UHGV virus genome: UHGV-0047852
Origin: a virus
Reading direction: 5' to 3' (one strand)
Length of the DNA: 11,553 nucleotides
The stretch's first letter is position 1. Each line of letters opens with the position of its first letter. Shown here piece by piece: positions 135-11,553 of the stretch. The translations under genes were made by a program, and so were the position numbers. The notes under the pieces were generated by a model. That model worked only from the letters and a program-made list of their open reading frames with translations, was not told where the DNA came from and did not search any database.

Positions 135-1205
135 TTATTTGATTTCAATTTTGTCCCACTCCCTGCCTCTGTCATCACGATACTGTGATGCCATGGTGTC
201 CGACTTATGCCCGAGAAGATGTTGAGCAAACTTATCGCTTATCTGCTTCTCATAGAGTCTTGCAGACAAACTGCGCAACTCGTGAAAGGTAGGCGGATCC
301 CCTTCGAAGGAAAGACCTGATGCTTTTCGTGCGCGCATAAAATACCTTGATACTGTGCCGGATGAAAGCGGTTCGCGACGAGTAGATGCAATTATGGTTT
401 CTCCGCCAAGAATCTCTTTGCATTTATCAAGTGTTTCCTTCATTGATATTCCGAGAGCATCAACATGCAATGCTGTTGGGATGGCAATTTTTACGCCTGT
501 TTTGCTTTGCTCGACATAAAGATATCCATCTACGATATCAGACCACTTCATTTCGCATAAATCACCAACTCGTTGCCCGGTAACAACAGCCAGTTCCATT
601 GCAAGTCTGAGCCAACATGGTGATGATTCTGCTGCTTGATAAATTTTCAGGTATTCGTCAGCCGTAAGTCTTGATCTCCTTACCTCTGATTTTGCAGCGC
701 GAGTGGCTGCGACCGGGTTTGTTGTTATATGGCCTTCAGCTATAGCCTCTCGGAATGCATCGCTCAGTGTTGATCTGATTAACTTGGCTGATGCCGCCTT
801 GCCCTCGTCTATGTATCCATTGAGCATTGCCGCAATTTCTTTTGTGGTGATGTCTTCAAGTGGAGCATCAGGCAGACCCCTCCTTATTGCTTTAATTTTG
901 CTCATGTAATTTATGAGTGTCTTCTGCTTGATTCCTCTGCTGGCCAGGATTTTTTCGTAGCGATCAAGCCATGAATGTAACGTAACGGAATTATCACTGT
1001 TGATTCTCGCTGTCAGAGGCTTGTGTTTGTGTCCTGAAAATAACTCAATGTTGGCCTGTATAGCTTCAGTGATTGCTATTCGCCTGTCTCGGCCTAATCC
1101 AAACTCTTTACCCGTCCTTGGGTCCCTGTAGCAGTAATATCCATTGTTTCTTATATAAAGGTTAGGGGGTAAATCCCGGCGCTCATGACTTCGCCTTCTT
1201 CCCAT
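135..1205 (-). CDS. int: Lambda-type tyrosine integrase Int (356 aa)
   Basis: ORF translation matches lambda Int essentially end to end (MGRRRSHERRDLPPNLYIRNNGYY … HELRSLSARLYEKQ … GHKSDTMASQYRDDRGREWDKIEIK), including the C-terminal catalytic region; sits adjacent to attL. Confidence 0.97.
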   Translation of the reverse strand: MGRRRSHERRDLPPNLYIRNNGYYCYRDPRTGKEFGLGRDRRIAITEAIQANIELFSGHKHKPLTARINSDNSVTLHSWLDRYEKILASRGIKQKTLINYMSKIKAIRRGLPDAPLEDITTKEIAAMLNGYIDEGKAASAKLIRSTLSDAFREAIAEGHITTNPVAATRAAKSEVRRSRLTADEYLKIYQAAESSPCWLRLAMELAVVTGQRVGDLCEMKWSDIVDGYLYVEQSKTGVKIAIPTALHVDALGISMKETLDKCKEILGGETIIASTRREPLSSGTVSRYFMRARKASGLSFEGDPPTFHELRSLSARLYEKQISDKFAQHLLGHKSDTMASQYRDDRGREWDKIEIK

Positions 1206-1401
1206 TTCTGATCCTCTTCAAAAGGCTACCTGTTACTGGTCGATTTAAGTCAACCTTTACCGCTGATTCGTGGAACAGATACTCTCTTCCATCCTTAACC
1301 GGAGGAGGGAATATCCTGCACTCGCGTACCCATCGACGAACTGTTTCAAGGCTTCTTGGGCGTCGCTGGCGTGCGTTCCACTCCTGAAGTGTCAAGTACA
1401 T
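1183..1401 (-). CDS. xis: Excisionase Xis (72 aa)
   Basis: Translation MYLTLQEWNARQRRPRSLETVRRWVRECRIFPPPVKDGREYLFHESAVKVDLNRPVTGSLLKRIRNGKKAKS matches lambda Xis; 3' end overlaps the int start as in lambda. Confidence 0.95.
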   Translation of the reverse strand: MYLTLQEWNARQRRPRSLETVRRWVRECRIFPPPVKDGREYLFHESAVKVDLNRPVTGSLLKRIRNGKKAKS

Positions 1402-1426
1402 CGCAAAGTCTCCGCAATTACACGCA

Positions 1427-1448
1427 AGAAAAAACCGCCATCAGGCGG
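1427..1448 (-). terminator. Intrinsic terminator on minus strand (CCGCC-tgat-GGCGG stem followed by U7), overlapping the orf55 stop codon
   Basis: Plus strand reads AAAAAACCGCCATCAGGCGG; on the minus strand this is a 5-bp GC stem plus a T-run. Sits between orf55 and xis. Confidence 0.5.
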
Positions 1449-1608
1449 CTTGGTGTTCATTCAGTTCTTCAATTCGAATATTGGTTACGTCTGCATGTGC
1501 TATCTGCGCCCACAGCATCCAGTGGTCATAGCAGTCGCTGATGTTCTCGGCTTCGATAACTCTGTTGAATGGTTCTCCATTCCATTCACCTGTGACTCGG
1601 AAGTGCAT
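1441..1608 (-). CDS. Lambda orf55-like small protein (55 aa; MHFRVTGEWNGEPFNRVIEAENISDCYDHWMLWAQIAHADVTNIRIEELNEHQAA)
   Basis: Translated by hand from the minus strand; below the size cut-off of the supplied ORF track. Position just beyond xis matches lambda orf-55. Confidence 0.7.
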   Translation of the reverse strand: MHFRVTGEWNGEPFNRVIEAENISDCYDHWMLWAQIAHADVTNIRIEELNEHQAA

Positions 1609-1850
1609 TTATCATCTCCATAAAACAAAACCCGCCGTAGCGAGTTCAGATAAAAGAAATCCTCGTCAGTGCGAGGATGCTGTTCATTGCTGCTATACAC
1701 TTTTTTGCTCTCAACGTAAGCGGTAGCCCATTCTGTTGGGTTGGTGCAGTTGCTTTTAGGAAATGCTATTTACCCCTTAAATGTCGGCTGAAAGAGCTAA
1801 AATCCATGCAAAAAATTTACGCAATTTTGTGTATTATTGTGCAGTAAGTA

Positions 1851-2453
1851 ATGAGCTATTTTCTGCGCAAAAAATGGATGGTAAATTTGTCCGGGTCAGG
1901 AAAAATTTTATGGGCGCTAAACATGAAAAAAGATTCGTATCCTTATTTGATTTGCATGACAGTTTCAGGGCTGATCTTTATTTTCCTTTTCTTCTGGTGG
2001 CGGGCAGATATCTACAGGGTCACGTTTCTTAATCAGAGTATATCCCACTATTACATTCTGTTTAGCATGGGAATAGCTTTTCTGTTATCTCTGTTTTGGG
2101 TTAAGAAGGGGATAGTAAAACAAAGCGGCTGGAAGAGTCTGTCAGCATACCTTAAGGTTTATGCAGGGATGTGCATATTTGCTGGATTTTTTCTGATTAT
2201 ACCCCTTACGACACTAACTTATTTTTTGCCTGGAGAGACATCGTCTTATGTTGCACCGTATCGGTATACTTCCGGTAGTTCAAAAAGTTGTTCTGGAGCT
2301 GAGGTGGATGACCCCGATCTACATGAGAATATTCGCATTTGCTATCCGTATGGCAATTATGAGTACGATAATATTATCTATGTTGAAAAGAAAATTAATA
2401 TATTAGGTGCGGTAGTGACATATGCACAGACCGCGCGTGATGATACTGAATGA
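1851..2453 (+). CDS. Hypothetical integral membrane protein (200 aa; about 3 N-terminal TM helices plus a hydrophilic C-terminal domain of about 80 aa); moron in the ea8.5/ea22 position
   Basis: 200-codon open frame in AT-rich DNA where stops are frequent; hydrophobic stretches YLICMTVSGLIFIFLFFWW, YYILFSMGIAFLLSLFWV, VYAGMCIFAGFFLIIPLTTLTYFL. Opposite strand to flanking phage genes. No strong SD at any candidate start (1851, 1878, 1923), so the start is uncertain. Confidence 0.6.
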   Translation: MSYFLRKKWMVNLSGSGKILWALNMKKDSYPYLICMTVSGLIFIFLFFWWRADIYRVTFLNQSISHYYILFSMGIAFLLSLFWVKKGIVKQSGWKSLSAYLKVYAGMCIFAGFFLIIPLTTLTYFLPGETSSYVAPYRYTSGSSKSCSGAEVDDPDLHENIRICYPYGNYEYDNIIYVEKKINILGAVVTYAQTARDDTE

Positions 2454-2487
2454 TATAGTATATAGCGGGCAAGTTTTAGTTAATTTA

Positions 2488-2520
2488 TCGAGGTAATATA
2501 ATTTACCTCGACTCGTTTGT
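2488..2520 (+). terminator. Candidate intrinsic terminator downstream of the membrane-protein gene (TCGAGGTAA-tataat-TTACCTCGA, then CTCGTTTGTT)
   Basis: Perfect 9-bp inverted repeat with 6-nt loop about 35 nt after the stop codon; the T-tract is interrupted. Confidence 0.4.
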
Positions 2521-2663
2521 TCTGGTATTAATATTTCGCTTTACGACCGATTTTTATCTGATGATATCATGCGGTTTTCATATACTGACTTACTGTCTTT
2601 TCTCCGTTAGCGATTTTCTCCTGCTCAGCGATGATTTTATCTTTGGCTTCTAGTTAATTTCGC

Positions 2664-2885
2664 TCACTTCGAACCTCTCTGTTTACTGATAAGCTCCAGA
2701 TCTTGCTGGCAACTGGCACAAGTCCGACAACCCTGAACGGCCAGTCGTCTTCGTTCATCTATCGGATCGCCACACTCACAACAATGAGTGGCAGATATAG
2801 CCTGGTGGTTCAGGCGGCGCATTTTTATTGCTGTGTTGCGCTGTAATTCTTCAATTTCTGATGCTGAATCAATTATGTCTGCCAT
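2664..2885 (-). CDS. TraR/DksA-family C4 zinc-finger protein (73 aa)
   Basis: Two CxxC pairs (CCECGD … CRTCASC) in a 73-aa protein, typical of phage TraR-like proteins. Stop overlaps a 5-codon remnant of the ea22 start (GTGAGCGAAATTAAC-TAG, minus strand 2650-2667). Confidence 0.8.
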   Translation of the reverse strand: MADIIDSASEIEELQRNTAIKMRRLNHQAISATHCCECGDPIDERRRLAVQGCRTCASCQQDLELISKQRGSK

Positions 2886-2940
2886 CTTTCATTAATCCCT
2901 GAATTGTTGGTTAATACGCTTGAGGGTGAATGCGAATAAT

Positions 2941-2961
2941 AAAAAAGGAGCCTGTAGCTCC
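2941..2961 (-). terminator. Intrinsic terminator on minus strand (GGAGC-ctgta-GCTCC followed by U6) between orf61-like and TraR-like genes
   Basis: Plus strand AAAAAAGGAGCCTGTAGCTCC; on the minus strand this is a hairpin followed by a TTTTTTATT tract. Confidence 0.5.
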
Positions 2962-2983
2962 CTGATGATTTTGCTTTTCATGT

Positions 2984-3199
2984 TCACCGTTCCTTAAAGA
3001 CGCCGTTCAACATGCCGATCGCCAGGCTTAAATGAGTCGGTGTGAATCCCATCAGCGTTACCGTTTCGCGGTGCTTCTTCAGTACGCTACGGCAAATGTC
3101 ATCGACGTTTTTATCCGGAAACTGCTGTCTGGCTTTTTTGATTTCAGAATTAGCCTGACGGGCAATACTGCGAAGGGCGTTATTATGTTCTATTGTCAT
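2984..3199 (-). CDS. Lambda orf61-like small protein (71 aa from MTIEHNNALRSIARQ…)
   Basis: Internal ATG at 3199 has a GAGG SD 5 nt upstream; the 117-aa track ORF is an N-terminal over-extension. The C-terminal two-thirds matches my recollection of lambda orf61. Confidence 0.65.
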   Translation of the reverse strand: MTIEHNNALRSIARQANSEIKKARQQFPDKNVDDICRSVLKKHRETVTLMGFTPTHLSLAIGMLNGVFKER

Positions 3200-3206
3200 A
3201 TTGGCC

Positions 3207-3958
3207 TCACACTTCGAATGCCAGTTGAGGGGTAAAGACGTCCCGTTCAGCGTTGTAATTAAGTGAACTGGCACTGTTGAATGATTCAATGCGTTCCACA
3301 AGAACTTGCGTACGGGTTTCTTTACTTGCGGGAGCATATGGCGAACCTACCCAGGATTTGTCGATGCCTATATTTCTTGCGACGTTCGTGCTGTCTGCAG
3401 ACGAAAGCGGTACATGAGTAAAAATGTCTTTATTTAACATCCGTAACCCATGAATCTTGGTGATTGGGTAGCCGTACTGATCTACAACATGACGTATAAG
3501 ATCGCGTAGTTTAGCCCGACACGCTCTCGGTCGTTTTGCATCGTATTCCCCCATCGAGCCGATGCAGACGCGGGGAAACTCATGGCACAGACGAATAAAT
3601 CGCTCATCTGGTTCGTTCATGTGCCACACCGGAGCACCAATAAATTTACCGTGAGGCCATGCCGCAATCAGGGCGTCATTCTCTTCACTGGTTCCGCCGA
3701 TAACATCCGGGATAACCGCGAATGAGAAACGAGGGTGATTGCCCCAGCGTTCAACAAATTGTAATATTCATTCCAGTCTACGGCCTTGTTTTTTGTCCAG
3801 AATGTGAATGCACCATTATCAAGAGCAAATGATTGGGTGACTTCGGAAGCCAGATCAATCTGAGCTGGATTAGCAAAACTGATGAATGCGTGTCTGCCTT
3901 TCCAGGCTTTCAACGCACAGGTATCGGGAGTTATTGGACCACCGTGAAAATGAATCAT
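3207..3958 (-). pseudogene. Frameshifted gene for an unrecognised protein of about 250 aa (N-terminal part [31 protein letters not shown]…; C-terminal part …AVIPDVIGGTSEENDALIAAWPHGKFIGAPVWHMNEPDERF…QLAFEV) occupying the lambda orf63 position
   Basis: Two adjacent minus-strand ORFs (3668..3958 and 3207..3629) in different frames; extending the downstream frame upstream gives continuous plausible protein back to about 3768, so a single 1-nt indel near 3760-3770 would join them. The ATG at 3958 overlaps the orf60a-like stop (ATGA). Confidence 0.6.
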
Positions 3959-4113
3959 ACACTCTCCCGTTTATTATTTATCTCCTCAGCCAGCCGCTGG
4001 GCTTTCAGCGGATTTCGGATAACAGAAAGGCCGGGAAATACCCAGCCTCGCTTTGTAACGGAGTAGACGAAAGTGATCGCGCCTACCCGGATATTATCGT
4101 GAGGATGCGTCAT
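3955..4113 (-). CDS. Lambda orf60a-like small protein (52 aa, [52 protein letters not shown])
   Basis: Hand-translated; ATG overlaps the exo stop (ATGA) as in lambda; C-terminus diverges from lambda. Confidence 0.65.
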
Positions 4114-4790
4114 CGCCATTGCTCCCCAAATACAAAACCAATTTCAGCCAGTGCCTCGTCCATTTTTTCGATGAACTCCGGCACCATCTCGTCAAAACTC
4201 GCTATGTACTTTTCATCCCGCTCAACCACGACATAATGCAGGCCTTCACGCTTCATCCGCGGGTCATAGTTGGCAAAGTACCAGGCATCTTTTCGCGTCA
4301 CCCACATGCTGTACTGCACCTGGGCCATGTAAGCCGACTTTATGGCCTCGAAACCACCGAGCCGGAACTTCATGAAATCCCGGGAGGTAAACGGGCATTT
4401 CAGCTCAAGGCCATTGCCGTCACTGCATAAACCATCGGGAGAGCAGGCGGTGCGCATACTTTCGTCGCGATAGATGATCGGGGATTCAGTAACATTCACG
4501 CCGGAAGTGAACTCAAACAGGGTTCTGGCGTCGTTCTCGTACTGTTTTCCCCAGGCCAGTGCCTTAGCGTTAACTTCCGGAGCCACACCGGTGCAAACCT
4601 CGGCAAGCAGGGTGTGGAAGTAGGACATTTTCATGTCAGGCCATTTCTTTCCGGAGCGGGGTTTTGCTATCACATTGTGAACCTCTGAAGCGGTGATGAC
4701 GCCGAGCCGTAATTTGTGCCACGCATCATCCCCCTGTTCGACAGCTCTCACGTCGATCCCGGTACGCTGCAGTATAATGTCCGGTGTCAT
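4110..4790 (-). CDS. exo: Lambda exonuclease Exo (Red-alpha, 226 aa)
   Basis: Translation [65 protein letters not shown]… matches lambda Exo. Confidence 0.97.
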
Positions 4791-5572
4791 GCTGCCACCT
4801 TCTGCTCAGTGGCTTTCTGTTTCAGGAATCCAAGAGCTTTCACTGCTTCGGCCTGTGTCAGTTCTGACGATGCGCGAATGTCGCGGCGAAATATCTGGGA
4901 ACAGAGCGGCAATAAGTCGTCATCCCATGTTTTGTCCAGGGCAATCAGCAGAGTGTTAATCTCCTGCATGGTTTCATCGTTAACCGGAGTGATGTCGCGT
5001 TCCGGCTGACGTTCTGCAGTGTATGCGGTATTTTCGACAATGCGCTCGGCTTCATCCTTGTCATAGATACCAGCAAATCCGAAGGCCAGACGGGCACACT
5101 GAATCATGGCTTTATGACGTAACATCCGTTTGGGATGCGACTGCCACGGCCCCGTGATTTCTCTGCCTTCGCGGGTTTTGAATGGTTCGCGGCGGCATTC
5201 ATCCATCCACTCGGTAACGCAGATCGGATGATTGCGGTCCTTGCGGTAAATCCGGCATGTGCAGGATTCATTGTCCTGCTCAAAGTCCATACCATCAAAC
5301 TGCTGGTTTTCATTGATGATGCGGGACCAGCCATCAACGCCCACCAACGGAACGATGCCGTTCTGCTTATCAGGGAAGGCGTAAATTTCTTTCGTCCACG
5401 GATTAAGGCCGTACTGGTTGGCGACGATCAACAATGCGATGAACTGCGCATCGCTGGCATCACCTTTAAATGCCGTCTGGCGAAGAGTGGTGATCAGTTC
5501 CTGTGGGTCGACAGAATCCATGCCGACACGTTCAGCCAGCTTCCCTGCCAGCGTTGCGAGTGCTGTACTCAT
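4787..5572 (-). CDS. bet: Single-strand annealing recombinase Bet (Red-beta, 261 aa)
   Basis: Translation [82 protein letters not shown]… matches lambda Bet; overlaps the exo start. Confidence 0.97.
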
Positions 5573-5577
5573 CCGTT

Positions 5578-5874
5578 TTATACCTCTGAATCAATATCAA
5601 CCTGGTGGCGGGCAATAGTTTCAACCATGTACCGTATGTGTTCTGCCATGCGTTCCTGAAACTCAACATCGTCATCAAACGCACGGGTAATGGCTTTTTT
5701 GCTGGCCCCGTGGCGTTGCAAATGATCGATGCATAGCGATTCAAACAGGTGCTGGGGCAGGCCTTTTTCCATGTCGTCTGCCAGTTCTGCCTCTTTCTCT
5801 TCACGGGCGATCTGCTGGTAGTGACGCGCCCAGCTCTGAGCCTCAAGACGATCCTGAATGTAATAAGCGTTCAT
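5578..5874 (-). CDS. gam: RecBCD inhibitor Gam, short form (98 aa)
   Basis: Translation [60 protein letters not shown]… matches lambda GamS. An in-frame TAA lies 19 codons upstream, so the long form is not encoded. Confidence 0.95.
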
Positions 5875-5950
5875 GGCTGAACTCCTGAAAATGGCTGTGA
5901 AAATATCGCCCGCGAAATGCCAGGCTGATTAGGAAAACAGGAAAGGGGGG

Positions 5951-6157
5951 TTAGTGATTCAGGCCGTTACCGCGTCCGTCGAGAAAAACTTCCACGAGCA
6001 AATCACGGGTATAAGTGCGCTCGATGCCGCGATGCAGATAAAGCCGTCCGCGTAAATTAGCTGATGCAGTCCAGGTACCATCTTTGTGTTTGACCAGCAT
6101 TCCTGGCATGACCGCACCTCGATTAACGGTCTGCGTTCCGTAATGTTGATGAACCAT
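5951..6157 (-). CDS. Hypothetical small protein in the lambda kil position (68 aa from MVHQHYGTQTVNRGAV…; alternative upstream start at 6241 gives 96 aa)
   Basis: ATG at 6157 has AGGAG SD with 5-nt spacer; the protein does not resemble lambda Kil or cIII. Confidence 0.5.
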   Translation of the reverse strand: MVHQHYGTQTVNRGAVMPGMLVKHKDGTWTASANLRGRLYLHRGIERTYTRDLLVEVFLDGRGNGLNH

Positions 6158-6752: not shown

Positions 6753-7442
6753 CTACCCATGCTTCCTATATGTCTGCGGCATGCTCCCAATAACCTTACC
6801 GAAGATGAACACCCGGTTCATCTCGTCTTTCTCGATCGGGTCCCACGGTGAGTAGCTTTTGTTATCAGAGATGACCAGCAGCTTATCCTTCATCATTTGC
6901 AGGCGCTTTACATGGGCTGTGTCGTCGTACAGAAACGCATAGATACCATCACCGTCGAAAGATTTAACTGTGATATCAACGAACAGCAGATCACCTGGTT
7001 CGATCGTTCCTGACATGCTGTCACCACGCACGTTAATGATGCGGATATTTTCCGCCTTCCTACCATCGAACATGTGACGAGCATCGTCAAACGAGTACTC
7101 AACCGAGCGTAGAACTTCTACAAACTCACGGTTGATGACTCCCGGCCCAGCACTGACTTCTATATCAAGAACGTCAATCTTGAAGTATTTGGAATGGCTG
7201 ACAGTTGATTGTATTGGTTGCACTGTACTGTCTGACATATTTCCAACGCCAGAAGATAACCATTCTGCGCGCACACCCAAAGCGTTCGCGATCTCCACGA
7301 TTTTAGTTGTTTGATTAGCTTTCCCTGTTTCGATTTTCTGAATAGCAGCCTGGCTAACCCCGACCAAATCCCCAAGCGCCTTTTGTGTAAGGCCTCGCGC
7401 TAATCTGGCTTCTTTAAGTCTTTCTGAGAGTGTTGTTTTCAT
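6753..7442 (-). CDS. CI-like prophage repressor (229 aa; N-terminal XRE-type HTH, C-terminal LexA/S24 peptidase-like autocleavage domain)
   Basis: HTH region LARGLTQKALGDLVGVSQAAIQKIETGK; S24 signature GDSMSGTIEPGDLLFVD with downstream KRL. Start chosen at MKTTLSERLKEA (7442); the 251-aa track ORF runs into the operator. Confidence 0.85.
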   Translation of the reverse strand: MKTTLSERLKEARLARGLTQKALGDLVGVSQAAIQKIETGKANQTTKIVEIANALGVRAEWLSSGVGNMSDSTVQPIQSTVSHSKYFKIDVLDIEVSAGPGVINREFVEVLRSVEYSFDDARHMFDGRKAENIRIINVRGDSMSGTIEPGDLLFVDITVKSFDGDGIYAFLYDDTAHVKRLQMMKDKLLVISDNKSYSPWDPIEKDEMNRVFIFGKVIGSMPQTYRKHG

Positions 7443-7450
7443 AGTCCAAA

Positions 7451-7519
7451 TGTACAACCAAGGTTTTATTCCATCAAACGAAAATGGTTGTTGACTAAAA
7501 ACAACCATAGTTTTAATCT
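7451..7519 (+). promoter_or_regulatory. OR/PR region: 25-bp palindromic operator ATGGTTGTTGACTAAAAACAACCAT (7484-7508), extra half-site TGTACAACCA (7451-7460), PR -35 TTGACT (7491-7496) and -10 TAATCT (7514-7519); divergent PRM-like element for the repressor on the minus strand
   Basis: Perfect dyad symmetry, 17-bp spacer promoter, GGAGG SD before the cro-like ATG at 7547. On the minus strand TTGATG-17-TACATT ends 6 nt before the repressor ATG, suggesting a leaderless transcript. Confidence 0.65.
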
Positions 7520-7846: not shown

Positions 7847-8173
7847 ATGCAACCACTTACATACCAACAGACTAGCGGATTTAGCCCGACTGCGGTGATA
7901 AATCGTTCTCAAACAAAACAGGTGCCAGGCCACGAAAAAATCCGTGATGCCGTCCGCGCCTGGTCGGCTGTAGATAATCAGGATGTCGTTGCCACACTCA
8001 TTGTGAATGAGTATCGGGAGCAGGGCGGCGGCACCATCGATTTCCCTGATGATGTCAGCCGTGCACGCCAGAAGCTGTTCCGCTTCCTCGATAACAAATT
8101 CGATTCTGAAAAATACCGAAATAATGTGCGTGAACTGACCCCGGCAATTCTGGCGGTACTACCGCTGGAATAA
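7847..8173 (+). CDS. YdaT-like (CII-position) protein, apparently C-terminally truncated (108 aa)
   Basis: Similarity from memory to Rac YdaT (motifs EYREQGGG and PAILAVLP); AAAGGAG SD. The ORF stops soon after the PAILA(V/I)LP motif whereas YdaT continues about 30 aa. Confidence 0.55.
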   Translation: MQPLTYQQTSGFSPTAVINRSQTKQVPGHEKIRDAVRAWSAVDNQDVVATLIVNEYREQGGGTIDFPDDVSRARQKLFRFLDNKFDSEKYRNNVRELTPAILAVLPLE

Positions 8174-9215: not shown

Positions 9216-9352
9216 TGTTTGAGTCTTATATGGCAGAACGTCTTCGCCGCCGCTGGGTGCGCCTGCGCTTATATCGTTTCCCCGGTTCTGTTTTGACCGA
9301 TTACCGAATACTGAAGAGTTACGCCAAAACCCTGACAGGAGCAGGAGTATGA
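9212..9352 (+). CDS. ylcG: YlcG-like small protein (46 aa, [46 protein letters not shown])
   Basis: Hand-translated; ATG overlaps the rusA stop; gene order rusA-ylcG-quuD as in DLP12. Confidence 0.7.
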
Positions 9353-9437
9353 AGTCAGAGATAACAATCAACTAATACTGTTTTGTTGATTTTTGCTTGT
9401 AATTGGCGTTTTGGTCTGATTTTTGTGGAGTAAGTTG

Positions 9438-9821
9438 ATGCGTGATATTCAGATGGTTCTTGAGCGTTGGGGAGCGTGGGCGGCTAATAATCATGAAGAT
9501 GTGACCTGGTCGTCCATTGCCGCCGGTTTTAAGGGATTAATTCCTTCAAAAGTAAAATCTCGCCCGCAATGTTGTGACGATGACGCGATGATCATTTGCG
9601 GGTGCATGGCCCGTCTGAAAAAGAACAACAGCGATTTGCACGATTTATTAGTAGATTATTATATAGTCGGTATGACATTCATGTCACTGGCAGGTAAGCA
9701 TTGCTGCTCTGATGGTTATATCGGGAAAAGGTTACAAAAGGCTGAGGGCATAATTGAAGGGATGTTAATGGCATTAGATATCCGGTTAGAGATGGATATC
9801 GTTGTTAATAACTCTAATTAA
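9438..9821 (+). CDS. quuD: Late-gene antiterminator Q (QuuD-type, 127 aa)
   Basis: Translation [60 protein letters not shown]… matches DLP12 QuuD; GGAG SD 7 nt upstream. Confidence 0.9.
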
Positions 9822-9844
9822 TACGCCAATTATTTACTAAAAGT

Positions 9845-9872
9845 TATTAAAAATGGGGCGTTGAAACGCCCC
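9845..9872 (-). terminator. Hairpin GGGGCG-ttgaaa-CGCCCC with U-tract on the minus strand; candidate terminator for nmpC
   Basis: Perfect 6-bp GC stem; reverse complement is followed by ATTTTTAATAACTTTT. Confidence 0.45.
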
Positions 9873-9960
9873 CAAAAATAAAGGGTAATATATAACAGAA
9901 GGTTTGTATAGTTAGAAGCAAGGTTGTGCTTCTAAAGGAAGTGGCTTGAGGGAGCCACTT

Positions 9961-9999
9961 ATATGTTGGGGAGGCAAAGCCTCCCACAACATATCTTTT
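9961..9999 (+). terminator. Long hairpin (ATATGTTGGGGAGG-caaa-GCCTCCCACAACATAT) followed by CTTTT; candidate terminator downstream of quuD
   Basis: 14-bp stem with one bulge plus a short U-tract, 11 nt before the convergent nmpC stop. Confidence 0.45.
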
Positions 10000-10009
10000 A
10001 GTAATCAAA

Positions 10010-11092
10010 TTAGAACTGGTAAACCATACCTACAGCAACGATATCATCGGTAGCAACGCCAGATGCTTTCGTGAAATCGCTCTTATCAATCAGGTTGATT
10101 TTGTAGTCAACAAAAGTGGACATATTTTTGTTGAAGTAATAGGTTGCACCTACATCAACATACTCAACCAGGTCCTGATCACCCCAAACACCCAAGTCTT
10201 TTCCTTTAGAATGCAGGTAAGCAACGGATGGACGCAGGCCGAAGTCGAACTGATATTGTGCAACAGCTTCGAAGTTTTGTGCTTTGTTGGCAATATGGTT
10301 ATTACCAAAAACAGTCATGTTCTGGGTTTCAGAATAGGTGGTGGCCAGATAGATGTTGTTCGCATCATATTTCAGACCAGCTGCCCATACTTCAGCATTT
10401 TGACCAGAAGCATTCAGACCGTTGTTACCGTAGATAACCTGATTATTAGTGCGATCAGATTTAGCATAGGTTGCACCCACGCCGAATCCTTCATACTCAT
10501 AAGTAGTTGAGAAACCGAAACCATCGCCATTAGTTTCAGTTACTTCATTTCGGTCATTTTTGCCCTGATACTGAGCTGCAAAGTTCAGGCCATCAACCAG
10601 ACCAAAGAAGTCGTTGTTACGATAAGTTGCAACACCTGTGGTGCGACCAGTCATGAATACATCTGTTTGGGTCCAGGTATCGCCACCGAATTCTGGCAGA
10701 ACGTCGGTCCATGCACCAATATCGTATGCTACACCGTAGTTACGGCCATAATCGATGGAGCCGTAGTCACCGAATTTCAGGCCAGCGAAGGCAAGACGGG
10801 TTTTATCTTTGGAGGAACCTTGAGATTCAGCGCGGTTGCCTTTGAATTCATATTCCCACTGACCGAAACCAGTCAGTTGATCGTTGATTTGGGTTTCACC
10901 TTTGAAGCCAAGACGGGCATAAGTAGTATCACCATCATCTGCATCATTAGAGGAGAAGTAGTGCTTAGCATTAACTTTCCCGTACAGATCCAGCTTGTTA
11001 CTGTCTTTATTATAAATTTCAGCTGCCTGAGCAGACATCGCCATCAGTACTGATGCAGCTACAGCAGAAATTGCCACTGTTAATTTTTTCAT
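10010..11092 (-). CDS. nmpC: Outer membrane general porin, NmpC/OmpC family (about 360 aa with signal peptide [23 protein letters not shown]), apparently intact
   Basis: Signal peptide then [16 protein letters not shown], typical of OmpC/OmpF/NmpC porins; C-terminal …VAVGMVYQF ending in Phe. Opposite strand to quuD, as nmpC is in DLP12. Confidence 0.9.
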
Positions 11093-11478
11093 CGTGAGAC
11101 CTTTTTTTGAACATTTATTAAAAAATGATGCCCTGCGCGACAAATATTCATCTAATCAATGTGATTAATTCAAGATGTAAGTTTTAGATTCTTATTTAAA
11201 TTGTGATCTAGATCTCTATTTTTATCTGAACTTTTTCTAATGCATGCTGTGCATGACTATTCTCTGAAAGAAAATAAATTTGGTAGCTAAATTATATTAA
11301 AGGTTGTTATTTATAAGTGTTCTATAATTCATCTCTTTAATTTAAATTCACTGAAAATAACGTCGGAAATTATTTAATGATTATTTGTTTATTTTTCCTT
11401 ATGTGATTGTGGTGGTGTTTTGAACACTCGATATCATTCTCACAAATATTGTTTAGAGGTTTACGTACGTAAAAAATT

Positions 11479-11553
11479 GGGTAATGACTCCAACTTATTG
11501 ATAGTGTTTTATGTTCAGATAATGCCCGATGACTTTGTCATGCAGCTCCACCG
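11479..11553 (-). mobile_element. IS1 terminal fragment (23-bp terminal inverted repeat GGTAATGACTCCAACTTATTGAT plus the 3' end of insB), continuing beyond the window
   Basis: The 75 bp match the reverse complement of the IS1 right end (…CGGTGGAGCTGCATGACAAAGTCATCGGGCATTATCTGAACATAAAACACTATCAATAAGTTGGAGTCATTACC) as I recall it. Confidence 0.85.

Follow-up and report, generated by a model that had tools for sequence, protein, structure and literature searches.

IS1 has very likely split the late promoter PR′ of a defective lambdoid prophage carrying a DLP12/PA-2-type porin cassette

The right-hand end of the window (the whole 11,553-nucleotide stretch of DNA that was analysed, UHGV-0047852) carries a late antiterminator gene, a porin gene in the opposite orientation, the beginning of a late promoter and one end of an IS1 element. 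The stretch comes from a human-gut metagenome assembly and covers the right part of a defective lambdoid prophage that belongs to Escherichia coli or Shigella and sits at the lambda attachment site; the integrase at the left end is of the lambda type, and its four example loci all adjoin ybhC, which is the lambda attachment site. Relatives that lack the insertion sequence are 99.97-100% identical to the window as far as the IS1 junction. The closest of these is the prophage of strain PigCaeca_1 (L001), relative to which the window shows a 4.4-kb deletion at 8171/8172 that takes out most of ydaT, both replication genes and several nin-region genes. The prophage is defective regardless of the effect of IS1. 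The end of the window coincides with the end of its source contig (ENA ERZ504749 NODE_859; 15,223 bp, short-read, coverage 5.6x); the contig breaks at IS1 because assemblers break at repeats, and the window therefore cannot be extended. The features of this end are listed below.

9438-9821, plus strand: quuD, late antiterminator Q of the Q21/Q933W family, 127 aa (Pfam PF06530)
9840-10009, minus strand: structured region 3′ of the porin stop codon, with four hairpins, the last being an intrinsic terminator (stem 9855-9872)
10010-11092, minus strand: NmpC/Lc-type general porin gene, intact, 360 aa including a 23-aa signal peptide
11093-11459, minus strand: AT-rich porin control region, 22-27% GC, with a putative promoter position
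11460-11465, plus strand: -35 element TTTACG of PR′, assigned by homology with IS-free relatives and Stx-phage PR′
11466-11479, plus strand: remaining 14 bases of the 16-bp PR′ spacer, with the motif CGTAAAAA at 11468-11475
11480-11553, minus strand: right (insB-distal) end of IS1, 74 bases, identical at 74/74 positions to the annotated 768-bp IS1 of locus L002

The product of quuD, which is annotated as QuuD in relatives, matches the phage 21 Q structures 6P18 and 6JNX (E=1e-7), and is 78% identical to Q of the 933W-type Stx phage Min27 and 85% identical to Q of phage PhiR40_1. A cognate PF06530 Q is encoded in the same prophage as the split PR′. The gene is convergent with the porin gene, which lies between Q and the lysis genes, as the first-pass annotation had described. 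This late-control module, with the gene order ninE-ybcO-rusA-ylcG-quuD, reversed porin, late promoter and lysis genes, is present in 2399 of 5426 complete E. coli genomes (about 44%). The order Q, reversed porin, PR′ and lysis genes is kept by the viable phages 434B, Lambda_4C10 and PA-2, and phage 434B carries the K-12 DLP12 segment, including nmpC with its IS5. We take this arrangement to be the DLP12/qsr′ and PA-2 layout described in the 1980s.

The porin open reading frame is listed as 10010-11143, with the ATG at 11092 as the most likely start. The called gene carries the Pfam Porin_1 domain (PF00267) and scores above the NCBIfam cut-off for the OmpC subfamily (515 vs 484 bits), and residues 24-360 align end to end with trimeric structures of OmpC, OmpK36, OmpK37, PhoE and OmpF (E~1e-135). 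Both signals for export and assembly are present, namely the N-terminal signal peptide and a C-terminal aromatic residue (...VYQF). The protein is 90% identical over its full length to Lc of phage PA-2; residues 1-98, signal peptide included, are the same in both, whereas the differences fall mainly within residues 181-235. In K-12, nmpC is interrupted by IS5 after codon 346, according to the annotation of the 434B-borne DLP12 segment, whereas the porin gene of the window is intact. Earlier statements that this is an intact nmpC-type porin and that its K-12 counterpart is inactivated by IS5 are thus both upheld. The exact protein is recorded on two contigs, one being the source contig of the window.

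The flanks of the porin gene are also those of the known cassettes, with which it shares gene order, the 3′ hairpin region and a proximal CRP-type site (DLP12 nmpC, PA-2 lc). The region 3′ of the stop codon folds with an energy of -58.5 kcal/mol (z = -8.1 relative to shuffled sequences), its 9855-9872 stem is picked up by a terminator scan, and it is nearly invariant in PA-2, DLP12/434B and Lambda_4C10. Its counterpart in DLP12 is the nmpC-quuD intergenic region, where the small RNA IpeX was described. No Rfam family matched 9300-11553 at E<=1, so the conserved hairpin region is without a curated family. Upstream of the gene, the AT-rich character noted in the first-pass annotation is confirmed, and the control region is 83% identical to that of PA-2 (322/388 positions), the 250 bp nearest the porin promoter being conserved. 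It includes a conserved proximal block at about 11135-11185 and a CRP-like site at 11202-11217 (plus-strand TGTGATCTAGATCTCT), which aligns with positions 1363-1383 of the PA-2 lc record J02580, labelled there as a CRP site. The locus differs from DLP12 and PA-2 in having IS1 in the late promoter, and its lysis module beyond PR′ is of the methylase/trkG type found in PigCaeca_1, whereas that of DLP12 is of the essD/rrrD type.

The first-pass annotation had expected the late promoter directly after Q. In this family PR′ normally lies beyond the porin gene, as in 434B, Lambda_4C10 and PA-2. In IS-free relatives the promoter reads TTTACG-16-TATGCT and is followed by a leader and then by a plus-strand intrinsic terminator. 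The sequence runs across the insertion point as ...GGTTTACGTACGTAAAAAATTGG|TTATGCTGTTAAGAGTGGTTACTTCGCC...AAACCCGCCGTCGAGCGGGTTTTTTT, with AAACCCGCCGTCGAGCGGGTTTTTTT closing with the terminator; from the junction onwards these relatives continue as TTATGCTGTTAAGAGTGG...AAACCCGCCGTCGAGCGGGTTTTTTT and then into the late genes, which are either essD-rrrD (DLP12 type) or the methylase type (small ORF, DNA methylase, holin, lysozyme, Rz, trkG). Were PR′ instead to lie directly after quuD, as in lambda, 21 and 933W, late transcripts would cross the porin gene in antisense and IS1 would only lengthen an antiterminated transcript by 768 bp. This placement has a precedent in the Stx phages, where the end of the Q gene and the -35 of PR′ overlap, but a promoter scan found no plus-strand promoter-like site between quuD and the porin gene, and conserved hairpins and a terminator on the minus strand occupy the interval. 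The homologue of the Stx PR′, with its -35, spacer motif, -10, leader and hairpin, sits upstream of the porin gene, and other phages with QuuD-like proteins have a different reversed cargo followed by the same promoter and leader. A late promoter adjoining quuD is accordingly very improbable.

The PR′ block that lies beyond the porin gene has about 80% identity with the DNA that immediately follows Q in Stx phages of the 933W/Sakai type. It shares with PR′ of 933W and Sakai Sp5 the -35 TTTACG, the motif CGTAAAAA, a 16-bp spacer, a -10 of the form TAT..T and a leader with ...TAAGAGTGGTTAC... and a first hairpin followed by a T-run. The arrangements differ in that the promoter overlaps the end of Q in the Stx phages, whereas here a reversed porin cassette of about 1.65 kb lies between Q and PR′, and in that PR′ of the window is physically split by IS1. 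The same block is found in the porin-less phages PhiR40_1 and cdtI, with other reverse-oriented genes in the slot, and SfII and Stx2a_1447 have reverse-oriented ORFs directly upstream of it. In Stx phages the PR′ transcript is the source of the regulatory small RNA StxS, and the first ~50 nt of the leader RNA are conserved with that transcript.

The start of the PR′ transcript has been mapped in Sakai by dRNA-seq at 1,266,203, with its 3′ end at 1,266,460 (Sy et al., PMC7547250). The promoter scan of Sakai Sp5 gives TTTACG-16-TATCAT. For the transfer onto NC_002695.2 coordinates we infer a shift of +142 bp from the coordinate of stx2A. With this shift the published start falls on the A seven bases after TATCAT and the 3′ end on the T-run of the terminator, the fit of both ends being a matter of self-consistency and the sole check on the 142-bp offset. 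By homology with the Stx phages, the start in the prophage of the window would be the A seven bases after TATGCT, which is position 8095 of L001.

The spacer is also the part of PR′ in which a Q-binding site may be sought. The record of phage 21 (OL657228) annotates a Q-binding element within the spacer between -35 and -10. Among the promoters of L001, PhiR40_1 and Sakai Sp5, three promoters paired with Q proteins of the QuuD/Q933W type, CGTAAAAA is invariant and begins two bases after the -35, whereas the part of the spacer near the -10 varies. Its register matches that of QBEu, the upstream subsite of the annotated phage 21 promoter, but a repeat like that of phage 21 is not seen here. CGTAAAAA is a candidate Q-binding subsite, probably part of the QuuD binding element.

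At the right-hand end of the window PR′ gives way to IS1. The IS1 end reported in the first-pass annotation is real, although it starts at 11480 and not at 11479, one G at this boundary being ambiguous between flank and element; the distance to the porin ATG was given correctly as 387 bases (11093-11479). The transposase genes would be read toward the porin gene, their coding sequence ending about 15 bp from this end of the element in L002 and L003. Of PR′, the window by itself has no more than the -35 and 14 spacer bases, and the left junction has no exact match among 5426 complete E. coli genomes, the GTDB species representatives and a metagenome contig collection, the only near match being a separate insertion in strain MS20675.

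The right junction was sought with a query made of the IS1 end, 5-12 unspecified bases and GGTTATGCTGTTAAGAGTGG. None of the GTDB species representatives has it, and the metagenome contig collection gave a single match, a contig from a human gut metagenome (L014; ENA OQIG01002559, NODE_2559, 5391 bp, coverage 2.3x). Positions 1-50 of L014 are identical at 50/50 positions to the other end of IS1, in the orientation that fits a single element, and are followed by AAAAATTGG and the remainder of PR′ with the -10, leader and terminator. On L001 coordinates the flank in the window ends at 8081 and that of L014 starts at 8073, the overlap being AAAAATTGG with one G ambiguous. The target-site duplication that the first-pass annotation had anticipated is thereby recovered as AAAAATTG[G], of 8-9 bp, with its window copy AAAAATTG at 11472-11479; this is the usual size for IS1. 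IS1 enters PR′ after spacer base 14 or 15 (about -15/-14), and comparison with IS-free homologues accordingly shows the interrupted element to be PR′ between its -35 and -10. A sigma-70 promoter homologous to a mapped PR′, with a proximal terminator, is found upstream of the lysis genes both in the IS-free relatives and in the window and L014 combined.

Beyond PR′, L014 carries a small ORF, a DNA methylase gene split into two ORFs, a 71-aa ORF in the position of the holin, a 141-aa ORF, Rz, trkG, a ynaK-like gene and, at the contig end, a fragment of an IS3-type integrase. The first-pass annotation had allowed for the late promoter and lysis genes being intact beyond the element; the lysis genes do follow at once, but behind a promoter that is split. 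The trkG and ynaK genes on this contig raised the question of a chimera with the Rac prophage, which was rejected because PigCaeca_1 has Q, porin, PR′, methylase, lysis genes, trkG and ynaK contiguous in one prophage, which sits at icd with the terminase genes next.

Judged from these two junctions, IS1 is a simple insertion with both ends present, the window and L014 being two contigs of different coverage that need not come from one assembly or one genome and between which the IS1 interior is unassembled. An artefact, in which the contig end was misjoined to a repeat and no such insertion exists in the real genome, would account for a window that stops exactly at the end of a 5.6x short-read metagenome contig and for a junction that is missing from the three collections searched. 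Against it stands L014, an independent contig that has the complementary junction in the expected orientation and with the next bases of the same target, and since a chimeric join would not give a target duplication of 8-9 bp, we regard a misassembly as very unlikely.

In the reading that we consider very likely, an IS1 insertion has split PR′ of a DLP12/PA-2-type module, with the lysis genes probably uncoupled from Q and the porin gene untouched. An IS1 of the 768-bp class would have transposed into PR′ between TTTACG and TATGCT, duplicating AAAAATTG(G) and presumably destroying the native promoter, so that the -35 and CGTAAAAA on the porin side would now face into IS1; a promoter scan found no usable -10 following the stranded -35 on the IS1 side. 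On L014 the scan finds a hybrid promoter, TTGGCA-18-TATGCT, made of the outward -35 of IS1 and the resident -10. An outward -35 box in the inverted repeat of IS1 is known to make hybrid promoters (PMC8764528), and the spacing here, with TTGGCA 18 bp from the resident TATGCT, resembles that at IS1-activated genes. With this hybrid promoter in place, initiation at the old site may persist. QuuD would probably be unable to load once the conserved spacer motif is gone, in which case transcription would stop at the terminator and the lysis cassette would no longer answer to Q. Unlike the silent genes that IS1 activates, the hybrid replaces an existing promoter, and the likely outcome would be a loss of Q control and not a gain of expression. 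The first-pass annotation had proposed that the element separates Q from its late promoter; Q-dependent late expression is indeed what would be affected, but IS1 lies inside the promoter, and the distance between Q and promoter is irrelevant because Q is a diffusible protein. Since the replication genes were already lost, the insertion would most likely be a neutral or mildly favourable step of decay.

Phage 434B is able to grow on the Q, late promoter and lysis segment of DLP12, which gives indirect support to Q-dependent readthrough of the terminator. A sigma-E-dependent essD promoter has reportedly been proposed for DLP12; if located further upstream, it would also be cut off from the lysis genes by IS1, and the conclusion would therefore be unchanged. 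A reporter described as '-121 to +650' (PMC7918800) was considered as a source of start-site data for the DLP12 late transcript and was rejected. Its forward primer sits in the signal-peptide codons of the porin gene, about 650 bp upstream of the essD ATG, and its reverse primer found no place in the loci compared; the numbers probably denote -650 to +121 from the essD start codon and therefore give no start-site information.

The same split promoter could also be seen as a selected rewiring, in which a constitutive hybrid promoter replaces PR′ and frees the lysis cassette of QuuD while the porin is kept intact, although we consider this unlikely. If it were true, the hybrid promoter would still make a short terminated leader RNA, and a second IS1 nearby would suggest either selection or a target hot spot. 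Such an element is found in E. coli MS20675 (NZ_CP082056), where an IS1 of the same orientation has entered the late leader at +6/+7, about 20 bp from the present site, with the porin intact. The two insertions hit different bases and are independent. Past the MS20675 element lies non-phage DNA (ISAs1 and other genes), and the late region has therefore been lost there.

Other insertion sequences in the module include IS5 in the porin gene, IS1 in the 5′ end of the porin gene, IS1 at the 3′ end of quuD and IS30 within the stretch. A hot spot at PR′ was rejected: of the 2470 E. coli genomes with the 157-bp promoter segment, 2412 show no interruption in it. The earlier suggestion that insertional modulation of this porin is recurrent is right in that several insertion sequences have entered the module, but is overstated in view of these counts; the pattern looks like general prophage decay.

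Insertion of IS1 upstream of the porin gene was earlier thought capable of silencing or activating it, whereas under the split-promoter reading preferred here the promoter-proximal region is untouched and porin expression would be expected to be unchanged. An effect on the porin could arise through the loss of upstream AT-rich silencing of the H-NS type or through readthrough from IS1. IS1 and IS5 disrupt an AT-rich silencer at the bgl operon, some E. coli strains reportedly keep an intact nmpC-type porin silent, the 387-bp interval between IS1 and the porin gene is likewise AT-rich (22-27% GC), and the transposase genes of the element run toward the porin. At this locus, though, the conserved proximal block and the CRP-like site are intact, with the IS1 end about 260-340 bp upstream of them, and a promoter scan found no promoter facing the porin created at the IS1 junction. 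The insertion point, moreover, falls exactly on the divergent late promoter, and altered porin expression as the consequence of IS1 is thus improbable; no evidence was found that the element modulates the gene.

A porin gene between Q and the lysis genes, as nmpC in DLP12 and lc in PA-2, has been known since the 1980s, and insertion sequences in cryptic prophages are routine; the insertion described here is an ordinary decay step of a prophage with a long-known porin cassette. Because the late promoter of this phage family follows the reversed cargo, automated annotation which expects PR′ right after Q will miss it. Beyond annotation the importance of the finding is small. The IS1 allele is a natural promoter swap, in which the native -35 and spacer are replaced by the outward -35 of IS1, and as such may be used to locate the binding site of Q proteins of the QuuD/Q933W type.

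The prophage carries a 4.4-kb deletion at window position 8171/8172, corresponding to positions 362-4771 of the IS-free relative from strain PigCaeca_1 (L001), which is otherwise 100% identical. The deletion has cut ydaT to 108 aa and has removed both replication genes together with several nin-region genes; with both replication genes gone, the prophage is therefore unable to replicate. The repressor differs in length from its counterparts in prophages that are otherwise alike (251 aa versus 228-230 aa), which suggests that the immunity type is not that of similar prophages.

Window 6753-7508, minus strand: CI-like repressor of 251 aa, with HTH and S24 peptidase domains.

The region downstream of the porin stop codon is strongly structured, with a z-score of -8.1 for the fold of the first 170 nt, and is nearly unchanged across PA-2, DLP12/434B, and Lambda_4C10.

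Window 9840-10012, minus strand: four strong hairpins, the last a terminator, from folding of the 170 nt past the porin stop.

IpeX, a small RNA that regulates porins, has been described from this region; an Rfam scan of window 9300-11553 (E<=1) matched no family to it.

On the other side of the porin, the late leader contains a hairpin that is conserved between DLP12-type prophages and Stx phages, and in E. coli MS20675 an IS1 has entered this leader, at +6/+7 and about 20 bp from the insertion in the window.

L013 (Sakai Sp5) 769-796 and L001 8119-8146: strong hairpin followed by a T-run, about 25-50 nt past the PR' start.
L003 (E. coli MS20675) 5199-5966: IS1 from a separate event, in the same orientation as in the window.

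For Stx phages, the PR' transcript has a published 3′ end at +258 (PMC7547250), beyond the first hairpin, which may act in termination or instead serve in, for example, pausing or the loading of Q. Past the MS20675 IS1 are an ISAs1 and non-phage genes, and the late region has therefore been lost there. On L014, the metagenome contig that has the other IS1 end and probably carries the prophage onward, a DNA methylase (588-1639) is broken into two ORFs, which may reflect a frameshift or a low-coverage error, and an IS3-type integrase fragment (5168-5383) closes the contig after a ynaK-like gene.

The distal 'CRP site' of the 1986 PA-2 lc record (J02580, L006 1067-1087) coincides with the initial ~20 nt of the leader that belongs to the divergent late promoter, a location that is not obviously porin control DNA, and its counterpart in the window's prophage is on the far side of the IS1. 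The DLP12 promoter fragment given as '-121 to +650' (PMC7918800, methods and supplementary primer table) starts in nmpC signal-peptide codons, at a point that precedes the essD start codon by ~650 bp, and its numbering thus appears to be inverted.

Reverse-oriented genes also lie between Q and a conserved late promoter and leader in PhiR40_1 (L008 1990-2436) and cdtI (L009 1012-2400), but these differ from the porin cassette that occupies the same slot in the window. Reverse-oriented ORFs are likewise found immediately 5′ of the conserved leader in SfII (L020 421-1443) and Stx2a_1447 (L021 416-1447), where the flank examined stops short of Q. The interval between Q and its promoter looks like a cargo slot that has been filled repeatedly.
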